Source: Escherichia coli
GTDB lineage: Bacteria; Pseudomonadota; Gammaproteobacteria; Enterobacterales; Enterobacteriaceae
DNA length: 64,000 bases
Direction: 5' to 3' (one strand)
Assembly (NCBI RefSeq): GCF_003991155.1
Contig: NZ_CP031293.1
The notes beneath the pieces were generated by a model. It searched no databases. It saw nothing but the letters and a program-made list of their open reading frames with translations, and was not told where the DNA came from. This document shows, piece by piece, positions 3,150 through 61,170 of this stretch. A program made the position numbers and the translations under genes. Position 1 is the stretch's first letter. Each line of letters opens with the position of its first letter.

Positions 3150-3357
3150 GCGAGCAGGATTCCTGATTTTAAACGTGAACGCCGCAGGAAGAATCAACAG
3201 GCATAGAATGGCGTTGGGTGCTTGAGGCTGTCTGGCGTTAAGCATTCGCGAGGTTCCAGATGGACAAAAGCCCCAGGCGATATTTCTATCAACCTGAGGC
3301 CAGCGTTCGAACCTAAGCAATTCGGATGTTAGTCTCTTCTTTGCAGGGAGGCAAGAC

Positions 3358-3510
3358 ATGCTGACAAAATATGCCCTTGTGGCAATCATCGTACTGTGTT
3401 GTACAGTACTGGGATTCACGTTGATGGTAGGCGACTCGTTGTGTGAGTTGAGTATCAGAGAACGTGGTATGGAGTTTAAGGCAGTTCTCGCTTACGAATC
3501 GAAGAAGTAG
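3358..3510 (+). CDS. Hok/Gef-family type I toxin (50 aa, small membrane peptide)
   Basis: ORF below the 60-aa track cutoff, translated by hand: [50 protein letters not shown]; hydrophobic N-terminal helix plus SLCE and AYES motifs shared with Hok/Gef/RelF; GGGAGG Shine-Dalgarno 7 nt upstream. Confidence 0.8.
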
Positions 3511-13640: not shown

Positions 13641-13702
13641 ATCGGCGGAACCAGGCTTTTGCTTGAATGTTCCGTCAAGGGATCACGGGTAGGAGCCACC
13701 TT

Positions 13703-14695: not shown

Positions 14696-14712
14696 GTAAG
14701 CATCTGTCAGAA

Positions 14713-14746
14713 AGGCCAGTCTCTTATGAGGCTGGCCTTTTTCTTT
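14713..14746. terminator. hairpin plus T-tract between convergent rpoS and MarR-family gene
   Basis: aggccagtctc / gaggctggcct stem with one mismatch, followed by tttttctttt. Confidence 0.6.
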
Positions 14747-14815
14747 TGTATGGGGAGTTGGTGTGTTTCGTCGCCTGGATAAGACACGTCAGCGTCCCAT
14801 CCGGCAATCAACATC

Positions 14816-15224
14816 CTATTTGCTCATCATCTTGCGCACCAGCTGCATAAACAGCTCCTGCTCTTCTGCACTCAAACGCCCCAAAAATTCCTCATCCACA
14901 CTGTCACCAATCGGTATCGCCGCAGCAAGTACCTTTTCTCCTTCGGCAGTCAGCCAGACAAAGCGTCGCCGCTTATCAGCAGAGTCATGTTCTCGTCTGA
15001 CTAAGCCACGATTTTCCATTCGTGCCAACATTTCTGCCAGCGTTGCTTTGGTGCTGACGGCTGCTTCTATCAGTGCCACCTGTTCGATACCAGGTTTATC
15101 AGCAATGGCGCGCATCACCGCGTACTGTGGTTTGGTCAGATCAGGTAACTCGTGCTGCCAGCGAGCCGTGTGCTGCTGAAAAAGCTGTCGTAACTGATGG
15201 AACGCTTTATTTCGTAACGCCATG
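14816..15224 (-). CDS. MarR/SlyA-family transcriptional regulator
   Basis: Winged-helix MarR-like sequence; ATG at 15224 has a GGAG Shine-Dalgarno, the longer 15256 start does not; divergent from the decarboxylase operon. Confidence 0.75.
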
Positions 15225-15369
15225 TAAACTCCGGGCAAACTATCTGCCGCTATCATAGCGGTTTTTCAGTGACGCAGGGGATGTTGTTACTTTTCAGTGC
15301 TTGCCGCGATGAGAACAGAGGCGTATTTTAATAATAACGTTCGTGTACGAACAATTAAGAGAATTAACA

Positions 15370-15963
15370 ATGAGACTGATCGTCGGGATGACAGGGGCCA
15401 CCGGAGCGCCTCTTGGTGTGGCATTACTGCAAGCGCTGCGGGAGATGCCGAATGTCGAGACTCATCTGGTGATGTCGAAGTGGGCGAAAACCACCATTGA
15501 ACTGGAAACGCCTTACAACGCCCGCGATGTTGCTGCCCTCGCAGACTTCTGCCATAACCCGGCGGATCAGGCCGCAACCATCTCCTCAGGTTCCTTTCGT
15601 ACCGACGGCATGATCGTTATTCCGTGCAGTATGAAAACGCTCGCCGGTATCCGTGCCGGTTACGCCGATGGCCTGGTGGGGCGCGCGGCGGACGTCGTGC
15701 TCAAAGAAGGCCGCAAACTGGTGCTGGTGCCGCGTGAAATGCCGCTTAGCACAATCCATCTCGAAAATATGCTCGCACTTTCGCGCATGGGCGTGGCGAT
15801 GGTGCCGCCGATGCCTGCCTTTTATAACCATCCCGAAACGGTAGATGACATTGTCCACCACGTGGTAGCCCGCGTGCTGGATCAATTTGGCCTCGAACAT
15901 CCTCACGCCAGGCGCTGGCAAGGATTGCCGCAGGCCCGGAATTTTTCTCAGGAGAATGAATAA
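15370..15963 (+). CDS. UbiX-family flavin prenyltransferase (decarboxylase subunit B-like)
   Basis: 197-aa ORF starting MRLIVGMTGATGA, typical UbiX/Pad1 N-terminus; first of three tightly linked genes. Confidence 0.8.
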   Translation: MRLIVGMTGATGAPLGVALLQALREMPNVETHLVMSKWAKTTIELETPYNARDVAALADFCHNPADQAATISSGSFRTDGMIVIPCSMKTLAGIRAGYADGLVGRAADVVLKEGRKLVLVPREMPLSTIHLENMLALSRMGVAMVPPMPAFYNHPETVDDIVHHVVARVLDQFGLEHPHARRWQGLPQARNFSQENE

Positions 15964-17390
15964 TGGCATTTGATGATTTACGCAGCTTTTTACAGGCGCT
16001 CGACGACCATGGGCAATTGCTGAAAATCAGCGAAGAGGTGAACGCGGAACCGGATCTGGCAGCAGCAGCTAACGCCACCGGGCGTATCGGCGACGGCGCG
16101 CCCGCGCTGTGGTTTGATAATATTCGCGGCTTTACCGATGCCCGCGTGGCAATGAACACCATCGGTTCCTGGCAGAACCACGCGATTTCCCTCGGCCTGC
16201 CGCCAAATACCCCGGTTAAAAAACAGATTGATGAGTTTATCCGCCGCTGGGATAACTTCCCGATTGCCCCGGAGCGCCGCGCCAATCCGGCCTGGGCGCA
16301 GAACACCGTTGATGGCGACGAGATCAACCTGTTCGATATCCTGCCGCTGTTTCGTTTAAACGATGGCGATGGCGGTTTCTATCTCGACAAAGCGTGCGTG
16401 GTTTCCCGCGATCCGCTTGATCCGGATAACTTCGGCAAGCAGAACGTCGGCATCTACCGTATGGAAGTGAAGGGTAAGCGTAAGCTCGGTCTGCAACCGG
16501 TGCCGATGCACGATATCGCCCTGCATCTGCATAAAGCGGAAGAGCGCGGTGAAGATCTGCCGATTGCCATCACCCTGGGTAACGACCCGATCATCACCCT
16601 GATGGGGGCCACGCCGCTGAAATACGATCAGTCCGAGTACGAAATGGCGGGCGCGCTGCGCGAAAGTCCGTACCCGATCGCCACCGCTCCGCTGACCGGT
16701 TTTGATGTGCCGTGGGGCTCGGAGGTGATCCTCGAAGGAGTCATCGAAAGCCGCAAACGCGAGATTGAAGGGCCATTCGGTGAGTTTACCGGCCACTACT
16801 CCGGCGGGCGCAATATGACCGTCGTGCGCATTGATAAAGTCTCTTATCGCAGCAAACCCATTTTTGAATCGCTCTATCTCGGGATGCCGTGGACGGAAAT
16901 CGACTACCTGATGGGGCCAGCCACCTGTGTGCCGCTGTATCAACAACTGAAAGCTGAGTTCCCGGAAGTGCAGGCGGTAAACGCCATGTACACCCACGGC
17001 CTGCTGGCGATTATCTCCACCAAAAAACGCTACGGTGGCTTTGCCCGCGCGGTGGGCCTCCGTGCGATGACCACGCCGCACGGTCTGGGCTACGTGAAGA
17101 TGGTGATTATGGTCGATGAAGACGTTGATCCGTTCAACCTGCCGCAGGTGATGTGGGCGCTCTCTTCGAAAGTGAACCCGGCAGGGGATTTGGTGCAGTT
17201 GCCGAATATGTCCGTGCTGGAACTCGACCCTGGCTCAAGTCCGGCGGGGATCACCGACAAGCTGATTATCGACGCCACCACGCCTGTCGCCCCGGACAAC
17301 CGTGGTCACTACAGTCAGCCGGTGGTGGATTTACCGGAAACCAAAGCCTGGGCTGAAAAACTGACCGCTATGCTGGCCGCACGTCAATAA
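15963..17390 (+). CDS. UbiD-family non-oxidative aromatic acid decarboxylase (subunit C-like)
   Basis: 475-aa ORF; start overlaps upstream stop; UbiD-like length and sequence. Confidence 0.8.
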   Translation: MAFDDLRSFLQALDDHGQLLKISEEVNAEPDLAAAANATGRIGDGAPALWFDNIRGFTDARVAMNTIGSWQNHAISLGLPPNTPVKKQIDEFIRRWDNFPIAPERRANPAWAQNTVDGDEINLFDILPLFRLNDGDGGFYLDKACVVSRDPLDPDNFGKQNVGIYRMEVKGKRKLGLQPVPMHDIALHLHKAEERGEDLPIAITLGNDPIITLMGATPLKYDQSEYEMAGALRESPYPIATAPLTGFDVPWGSEVILEGVIESRKREIEGPFGEFTGHYSGGRNMTVVRIDKVSYRSKPIFESLYLGMPWTEIDYLMGPATCVPLYQQLKAEFPEVQAVNAMYTHGLLAIISTKKRYGGFARAVGLRAMTTPHGLGYVKMVIMVDEDVDPFNLPQVMWALSSKVNPAGDLVQLPNMSVLELDPGSSPAGITDKLIIDATTPVAPDNRGHYSQPVVDLPETKAWAEKLTAMLAARQ

Positions 17391-17400
17391 GGAGAACAAG

Positions 17401-17637
17401 ATGATTTGTCCACGTTGTGCCGATGAACAGATTGAAGTGATGGCGAAATCGCCGGTAAAAGATGTCTGGACGGTATATCAGTGCCAGCATTGCCTTTATA
17501 CCTGGCGCGATACCGAACCGCTGCGCCGCACCAGCCGCGAACATTATCCCGAAGCGTTCCGCATGACGCAGAAAGATATTGATGACGCGCCGATGGTGCC
17601 GAGCATCCCGCCGCTGCTGGCGGAAGGTAAGTGTTAA
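17401..17637 (+). CDS. small decarboxylase subunit D-like protein with CxxC...CxxC motif
   Basis: 78-aa ORF MICPRCADEQ...CQHCLYTW, 10 bp downstream of the UbiD-like gene. Confidence 0.65.
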   Translation: MICPRCADEQIEVMAKSPVKDVWTVYQCQHCLYTWRDTEPLRRTSREHYPEAFRMTQKDIDDAPMVPSIPPLLAEGKC

Positions 17638-17646
17638 TAAAAAAGT

Positions 17647-17674
17647 GCCGGGTAGAGGCTTTGCTTTACCCGGC
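17647..17674. terminator. hairpin between convergent decarboxylase operon and pphB
   Basis: gccgggta...tacccggc 8-bp stem. Confidence 0.4.
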
Positions 17675-17678
17675 CACG

Positions 17679-18335
17679 TTATTTAATTTTATAAAACGAT
17701 AACCGTCTGCTTTCCGGCGAGCCGGTATCAATATAAACCTGATTGGCAAATGTCTGGATATTTATAAACATCATATGTCCAAAGATAAAACAGTCGGCAC
17801 CGTTTATTTCTTTTAACTCTCCCTTGAATGATTTCTGCACGCGATCAACAGGCCAGAGTAATTCGCTTTCTGCTATTTCTTTACCAAACTGATATTCATC
17901 ACCCGGATAATCTGCATGTGCGATGACATATTTTATGTTGTCGTTAGTGATTTCAATAATATGTGGAAGGTGATGGAATTTCAGCAACAGATCTATTGCC
18001 TCTTGTTGCTCTGAATCATTTAAATTGAAAAACCAGTCACCACCGCTGGCAAGCCACATATTTCCATCGCCAGTTTCGAATGCCTCAAGCGCCATCGCTT
18101 CGTGGTTGCCTTTAGCCGATGTAAACCAGGGCTGGTTTAGCAGGCGCAGCACGTTAAGACTCTCCGGCCCACGATCAATATTATCGCCGACAGAAATAAG
18201 TAAGTCGGTTTCAGGGCAAAAAGAGAGTTGATGTAAGCGGGATTGTAATAATTGATAGTCACCATGAATATCACCAACGGCCCATATATGGCGATAGTGA
18301 TGGGCATTGATTTTTTGATAGCGTGTAGATGGCAT
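17679..18335 (-). CDS. pphB: serine/threonine protein phosphatase 2
   Basis: 218-aa ORF with metallophosphatase motifs GDIHGD, GDNIDRG, GNHE. Confidence 0.9.
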   Translation of the reverse strand: MPSTRYQKINAHHYRHIWAVGDIHGDYQLLQSRLHQLSFCPETDLLISVGDNIDRGPESLNVLRLLNQPWFTSAKGNHEAMALEAFETGDGNMWLASGGDWFFNLNDSEQQEAIDLLLKFHHLPHIIEITNDNIKYVIAHADYPGDEYQFGKEIAESELLWPVDRVQKSFKGELKEINGADCFIFGHMMFINIQTFANQVYIDTGSPESRRLSFYKIK

Positions 18336-60578: not shown

Positions 60579-60671
60579 GGTGAGGTGGCCGAGAGGCTGA
60601 AGGCGCTCCCCTGCTAAGGGAGTATGCGGTCAAAAGCTGCATCCGGGGTTCGAATCCCCGCCTCACCGCCA
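60579..60671 (+). tRNA. serV: tRNA-Ser (anticodon GCU)
   Basis: 93-nt cloverleaf with long variable arm; GGTGAGG...CCTCACCGCCA; anticodon loop CTGCTAA. Confidence 0.93.
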
Positions 60672-60674
60672 TTT

Positions 60675-60751
60675 GCATCCGTAGCTCAGCTGGATAGAGT
60701 ACTCGGCTACGAACCGAGCGGTCGGAGGTTCGAATCCTCCCGGATGCACCA
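60675..60751 (+). tRNA. argV: tRNA-Arg (anticodon ACG), copy 1
   Basis: 77-nt GCATCCGTAGCTCAGCTGGATAGAG...CGGATGCACCA; anticodon loop CTACGAA; copy-to-gene-name assignment is tentative. Confidence 0.93.
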
Positions 60752-60815
60752 TCTCTTACTTGATACGGCTTTAGTGGCGGTATCAAAAAATCTGCAGTAA
60801 AGTAAGTTTCCCGAT

Positions 60816-60892
60816 GCATCCGTAGCTCAGCTGGATAGAGTACTCGGCTACGAACCGAGCGGTCGGAGGTTCGAATCCTCCCGGATGCACCA
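60816..60892 (+). tRNA. argY: tRNA-Arg (anticodon ACG), copy 2
   Basis: Identical 77-nt sequence; name assignment tentative. Confidence 0.93.
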
Positions 60893-60954
60893 TCTCTTAC
60901 TTGATATGGCTTTAGTAGCGGTATCAATATCAGCAGTAAAATAAATTTCCCGAT

Positions 60955-61031
60955 GCATCCGTAGCTCAGCTGGATAGAGTACTCGGCTACGAACCGAGCG
61001 GTCGGAGGTTCGAATCCTCCCGGATGCACCA
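60955..61031 (+). tRNA. argZ: tRNA-Arg (anticodon ACG), copy 3
   Basis: Identical 77-nt sequence; name assignment tentative. Confidence 0.93.
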
Positions 61032-61093
61032 TCTCTTACTTGATATGGCTTTAGTAGCGGTATCAATATCAGCAGTAAAATAAATTTCCCGAT

Positions 61094-61170
61094 GCATCCG
61101 TAGCTCAGCTGGATAGAGTACTCGGCTACGAACCGAGCGGTCGGAGGTTCGAATCCTCCCGGATGCACCA
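61094..61170 (+). tRNA. argQ: tRNA-Arg (anticodon ACG), copy 4
   Basis: Identical 77-nt sequence; name assignment tentative. Confidence 0.93.

Follow-up and report, generated by a model that had tools for sequence, protein, structure and literature searches.

The question raised by this locus is what is encoded by the small open reading frame (ORF) that follows a gene for a UbiD-like protein in the analyzed window, i.e. the whole stretch of 64,000 nucleotides of Escherichia coli DNA (contig NZ_CP031293.1). A previous sequence-only reading had described a 78-aa product with the motifs CPRC (residues 3–6) and CQHC (residues 28–31), and the translation contains both exactly as described. It had further proposed that this protein is a zinc ribbon and a partner of the UbiD-like protein, and had regarded such third subunits as poorly characterized. 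According to the results presented below, the 78-aa protein (EcdD) is very probably subunit D of a three-gene EcdBCD system, a non-oxidative hydroxyarylic-acid decarboxylase of 4-hydroxybenzoate/vanillate, in which it would serve as a zinc ribbon that binds and activates EcdC. The direct basis of this reading consists of the ORF, the family, the conservation of the motif, the predicted fold, the gene context and two of three interface salt bridges; zinc binding, complex formation and activation are ascribed to EcdD by analogy with its homologues.

The frame is a real gene, ecdD (aliases vdcD, bsdD, shdD and kpdD; Table 1). It starts with ATG and ends with TAA, the stop codons being in tandem (TAA TAA), and its 78-aa translation is MICPRCADEQIEVMAKSPVKDVWTVYQCQHCLYTWRDTEPLRRTSREHYPEAFRMTQKDIDDAPMVPSIPPLLAEGKC. 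The gap between ecdC and ecdD is 10 nt, the upstream 475-aa UbiD-family ORF ending with TAA at 17388–17390. On the other side, ecdD is convergent to pphB (17679–18335), and the hairpin located between these two genes is probably a shared bidirectional terminator; of its two strands, the minus strand has the better T-run.

Table 1. Coordinates of the ecdBCD genes and of the associated features within the window.
Feature	Coordinates	Strand	Evidence
MarR-family regulator, divergent	14816..15223 (RefSeq extent)	-	Pfam MarR, RefSeq; presumptive regulatory role
ecdB/vdcB, UbiX-type flavin prenyltransferase making prFMN	15370..15963	+	Pfam Flavoprotein, NF041206, RefSeq
ecdC/vdcC, 475-aa UbiD-family prFMN-dependent decarboxylase, catalytic partner of D	15963..17390	+	Pfam, NF041204, PDB homology
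AAGGAG, putative Shine-Dalgarno sequence of ecdD	17389..17394	+	seen in sequence; overlaps the ecdC stop codon, 6 nt 5′ of ATG
ecdD/vdcD, 78-aa zinc-ribbon subunit D	17401..17637	+	ORF listing, NF041205, PDB match, AF2, Foldseek, RefSeq WP_000562981.1
GC-rich hairpin between convergent ecdD and pphB, putative terminator	17647..17674	.	terminator-like site from scan

Comparison of EcdD with the NCBIfam equivalog model NF041205 (VdcD) yielded a score of 121.2 bits (cut-off 30), with a match extending over residues 3–72 of the protein and positions 1–70 of the 70 in the profile. PF26358 (EcdD_BsdD_detox) is present as a precomputed annotation on all EcdD homologues; the Pfam-A set searched with EcdD had no PF26358 model. 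Two other domain assignments were rejected: (i) DUF1062 (PF06353), whose match is below the gathering threshold (21 vs 23 bits), is confined to residues 19–45 and to 27 of 135 profile positions, and represents a common zinc-knuckle resemblance without membership, and (ii) DUF5795, with a sub-threshold score of 17.5 bits. EcdD also has a Pro-rich tail of the VPxIPPL type (MVPSIPPLL, residues 65–73), and the gene order is B-C-D, with a VdcC-type UbiD gene directly 5′ of ecdD and a VdcB (UbiX-type) gene in the same operon. EcdC matched all three Pfam domains UbiD_N, UbiD and UbiD_C, and scored 790 bits against NF041204 (VdcC; cut-off 650), while EcdB scored 312.7 bits against NF041206 (VdcB; cut-off 290). 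The catalytic motifs NVGIYR (with R166) and EGPFGE are retained in EcdC, which, judged from its sequence, looks catalytically intact.

The VdcD/EcdD/BsdD family is small and compact. A word-indexed search yielded 179 relatives of EcdD, and HMMER, run exhaustively over 1.84 billion representatives of 50%-identity clusters, yielded 190. The D subunits of Enterobacter cloacae and Klebsiella pneumoniae (EcdD/KpdD) and of Bacillus subtilis (BsdD) are orthologous and encoded in B-C-D operons, and the Klebsiella and Salmonella cluster representatives are 86–90% identical to the EcdD analyzed here. In an alignment of 39 sequences, residues C3, R5, S17, F53, P67 and P70 are invariant, and C6, C28, C31, W35, R36 and E39 are conserved in at least 90%; the exceptions at the Cys positions are visibly corrupted sequences. 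Of the representatives of up to 150 aa that were newly retrieved (134), 99 carry the pattern CxxC-N(15-30)-CxxC. Most of those without the motif aligned with the query in its C-terminal part only, and all 11 that were read were N-terminally truncated, Cys-substituted in a manner resembling sequencing or frameshift errors, or contaminated with adapters (e.g. the “LIHISEPTRL” artefact). The four cysteines are thus essentially universal in the family, and the CxxC pair is no chance motif.

Two long repeat proteins, P0134 (1737 aa) and P0248 (553 aa), in which EcdD residues approx. 6–46 were matched 22 and 5 times, respectively, were rejected as members of the family. Both look like proteins with propeller or lectin-type WxxYQ repeats, and they are paralleled by weak matches of EcdD to PLL-lectin propellers in the PDB. 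The matches to P0134 and P0248 come from a common ‘W-x-V/L-Y-Q’ strand motif, and not from zinc-ribbon homology.

A phmmer search of PDB sequences with EcdD identified “Protein ShdD” (7AE4/7AE5/7AE7; E=3.5e-11), the deposited name of the VdcD subunit of the vanillate/4-hydroxybenzoate decarboxylase VdcCD of Sedimentibacter hydroxybenzoicus (ShVdcD). The alignment begins at residue 1 with all four cysteines in register, so that positions 3, 6, 28 and 31 are identical in the two proteins. For EcdC, the comparison with ShVdcC (7ae4_A) gave E=7.9e-160 and 53% identity. Although only approx. 41% identical, ShVdcD and EcdD have in common W35-R36-x-T-E39, the VPxIPPL tail and a superposing fold (predicted in the case of EcdD). 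They differ in that EcdD contains a 6-residue insertion (LRRTSR) after the ribbon and a longer C-terminus, and in that the host of EcdD is a facultative enterobacterium, whereas that of ShVdcD is a strict anaerobe.

The AlphaFold2 (AF2) model of EcdD, built from the 39-sequence alignment, has a mean pLDDT of 93 and contains strands 11–16, 24–28 and 34–36, to which short helices and then an extended tail are joined; the predicted fold is that of a three-stranded antiparallel zinc ribbon. In a Foldseek comparison with the PDB, the best seven matches to this model were all ShVdcD chains (7ae4/7ae5/7ae7; probability 1.00, target-normalised TM 0.78–0.87). The next were weak matches to the zinc ribbons of NrdR, TFIIS, Rpa12 and Pol I/II small subunits (E ≥ 0.2, approx. 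39 aligned columns). Structure prediction of the 78-aa protein alone, which the sequence-only reading had put forward as a check, thus returned a predicted metal-binding ribbon whose nearest structure is ShVdcD, and not a fold devoid of a metal site, which the same reading had named as counter-evidence.

The role of the D subunit has been studied with the homologous enzymes. In the ShVdcCD structures (PDB 7AE4, 7AE5 and 7AE7; Marshall et al. 2021, Nat Commun 12:5065; PMC8379154), VdcD is a zinc ribbon with one Zn tetrahedrally held by C3, C6, C28 and C31, and the VdcC hexamer is decorated by six D subunits, i.e. 1:1, in the crystals, including the apo forms. The interface between VdcC and VdcD (approx. 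1661 Å2) involves or buries 59% of the D residues, and VdcD touches the loops bearing the catalytic E-R-E residues (PMC8379154). [quoted passage not shown] A stoichiometric C-D complex and a requirement for D were shown for the enzymes of both S. hydroxybenzoicus and B. subtilis, and the same paper cites earlier genetics (Chow 1999, Lupa 2005, Lupa 2008) according to which D is required for activity (PMC8379154). Zinc binding has been shown by crystallography only for ShVdcD (PMC8379154), and the literature that could be searched yielded no experiment on E. coli EcdD or EcdCD.

The zinc ribbon and the partnership with the UbiD-like protein are thus upheld by the VdcD equivalog match and by the homology with ShVdcD, in which the same four cysteines coordinate Zn (PMC8379154). 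For this family, the opinion that such third subunits are poorly characterized is outdated, because co-purification, stoichiometry, activity dependence and C-D crystals were published in 2021 (PMC8379154); with that work, the experiments proposed for this locus had already been done on homologues (C 53% and D approx. 41% identical).

The published salt bridges of ShVdcCD were mapped on six C-D pairs. Two of them are conserved in E. coli and in the other four pairs compared: D-R36/C-E31 of S. hydroxybenzoicus corresponds to R36/E29 of E. coli, and D-E39/C-R133 to E39/R131. Conservation does not extend to the remaining bridge, D-R12/C-D173, the corresponding E. coli residues being E12 and G171. 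Residue G171 of EcdC is placed within a KGKRK loop (flanked by K170, K172, R173 and K174), shortly after the catalytic R166. No clear covariation pointing to a compensatory charge swap at R12/D173 was observed among the six C-D pairs, a number too small for a test of covariation, and this comparison was dropped as evidence.

The adjacency of D to UbiD genes was analyzed by seven targeted locus look-ups, one of which (L008) covered too little sequence for the gene 5′ of D to be identified. The layout with a divergent MarR gene followed by B, C and D is also found in Saccharopolyspora rosea and in Vibrio salinus. In the locus L005 (GCA_023431625.1) B-C-D is located beside a LysR-type regulator, and on two short metagenome contigs a UbiD-family gene lies directly 5′ of a D gene, whose product is 29–34% identical to EcdD. 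The sequence-only reading had named a lack of homologues beside UbiD-like genes elsewhere as the finding that would speak against it, and the opposite was observed in all of these cases. In addition, a 1571-bp contig (GCA_015689235.1) encodes an apparent single polypeptide (P0242) composed of a UbiD domain and then a D-type zinc ribbon; as a Rosetta-stone protein, a real C-D fusion would hint at physical interaction, but P0242 could also be an artefact of assembly, frameshift or gene calling.

The D gene of Saccharopolyspora (5001–5234 in L002/L003) encodes a protein 70% identical to EcdD, a value unusually high for a pair composed of an actinomycete and an enterobacterium. This identity and the shared layout suggest horizontal transfer of the whole MarR/B/C/D cassette, a view with which its scattered occurrence in E. 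coli (44% of the genomes) would agree.

The order of genes given by RefSeq for the E. coli locus is pcm, nlpD, rpoS, the divergent MarR gene, the decarboxylase subunits B, C and D, pphB and mutS, and the EcdD product (in a 100% identical genome) is named “non-oxidative hydroxyarylic acid decarboxylases subunit D”. The rpoS-mutS segment is a well-known polymorphic region of the E. coli chromosome, one that is not known from K-12. Several complete E. coli chromosomes match the 3-kb stretch 14700–17700 at 100% identity. Of 5426 complete genomes of this species, 2418 contain the stretch and 2414 contain ecdD considered alone; the nucleotide allele of ecdD present here (at least 99% identity) was found in 49 of the 5426. 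The mechanically called ORFs of three genes are longer than in RefSeq: ecdB starts at GTG 15343 (206 aa) vs ATG 15370 (197 aa), the MarR gene at 15256 vs 15223, and rpoS at 13667 vs 13703. This is ordinary start-codon ambiguity.

The E. coli variant analyzed here is a minority allele, whose product ends with Cys78 (TGT, 17632–17634), a fifth cysteine placed in the flexible tail. The only other E. coli EcdD allele retrieved (cluster representative P0002) carries A64T, A75V and C78R in the alignment. Cys78 is probably neutral, because deletion of the tail barely affects the homologue ShVdcD.

Two further features were noted elsewhere in the window. A sok antitoxin RNA (Rfam RF01794) was recognized at 3216–3373 (+); the match, of 110 bits where the gathering score is 59, points to a putative chromosomal toxin-antitoxin locus of the hok/sok type. 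Five tRNA genes are present at 60579–61167 (+), one of 90 nt and then four of 74 nt with identical scores and a spacing of approx. 140 bp; this cluster resembles the serV-argVYZQ array of E. coli.

The mechanism that we propose for EcdBCD is drawn from the solved and assayed homologues, and would comprise the following elements: (i) Cys3, Cys6, Cys28 and Cys31 would tetrahedrally bind one structural Zn2+, which would hold the three-stranded zinc-ribbon sheet of EcdD, (ii) this sheet and the Pro-rich C-terminal tail would pack 1:1 on each EcdC protomer of a hexamer, (iii) the contact would adjoin the EcdC loops with the catalytic Glu-Arg-Glu, and (iv) EcdD, without taking part in the chemistry, would stabilise the active-site geometry and so turn on prFMN-dependent (de)carboxylation. 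The prFMN would be provided by the UbiX-like EcdB, and the divergent MarR-type gene presumably controls the operon. By analogy with these homologues, we are highly confident that EcdD would prove to be a structural-Zn ribbon bound 1:1 to EcdC and an allosteric activator of the decarboxylase.

Activation by D is partner-specific, since in metabolic-engineering work co-expression of enterobacterial D (KpdD/EcdD) with the non-cognate UbiD enzyme AroY had a negligible or even a negative effect (PMC5779730). AroY was enhanced or attenuated by KpdD/EcdD depending on context (PMC5779730), which hints at cross-talk of EcdD with other UbiD-family enzymes. Such cross-talk, or a redox/oxygen-sensitive Zn-Cys4 switch releasing D and shutting the oxygen-labile decarboxylase, would make EcdD more than a passive clamp, and we consider this improbable.

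Small accessory chaperones or maturases are used by other UbiD systems (PMC10865409; PMC13040415), and VdcCD purified from a heterologous host lacked the cofactor and had to be reconstituted in vitro (PMC8379154). EcdD might accordingly be no permanent subunit but a transient assembly or maturation factor, which loads or oxidises prFMN in EcdC in a manner similar to LpdD or PhdC/YclD. Like D, LpdD (a prFMNH2 chaperone), PhdC/YclD (prFMN maturase) and the gamma subunit of phenylphosphate carboxylase are small, are encoded beside UbiD/UbiX genes and are needed for activity or boost it. In contrast to D, which binds Zn and the enzyme surface, these proteins bind flavin, and their sequences and folds are unrelated and place them in another family; the lack of sequence similarity between D and LpdD has been pointed out (PMC8379154). 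Moreover, activity scaled with the D:C stoichiometry, and D was bound 1:1 even in apo crystals (PMC8379154). The LpdD_chaperone gene (PF21758) occurs as a separate, extra gene beside B-C-D in Vibrio (1940–2332 in L004) and in L005 (4632–5024), from which it follows that the two roles are separately encoded. A function of EcdD in maturation is therefore very unlikely. In the RefSeq annotation of the E. coli locus, an LpdD_chaperone gene is absent between rpoS and mutS.

The zinc ribbons of NrdR, TFIIS and RNA-polymerase subunits, being the nearest folds beyond ShVdcD, could point to EcdD as a nucleic-acid-binding (TFIIS- or NrdR-like) regulator of the operon. These fold matches are weak, as indicated above, more than half of the residues of the homologous D are buried against VdcC (PMC8379154), and the locus already has a MarR-type regulator, which makes a regulatory function of EcdD extremely unlikely.

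The probability that ecdD is a chance open frame, as its short length and an overlapping 58-aa antisense ORF (17368–17544, taken as spurious) might suggest, is negligible, and we count this possibility as already refuted by the curated HMM match, the solved homologue in the PDB, the alignment and the representative search, with conservation of the protein from Enterobacterales to Actinomycetota and more distant relatives and with invariant motif positions; the gene also has its own Shine-Dalgarno sequence.

As a discovery, ecdD carries little weight, since the gene, its family, the zinc ribbon and the activating role of subunit D are already known, annotated and structurally described. The practical relevance of the system lies in the formation of phenol and guaiacol from 4-hydroxybenzoate and vanillate in enterobacteria, and in biocatalytic (de)carboxylation.
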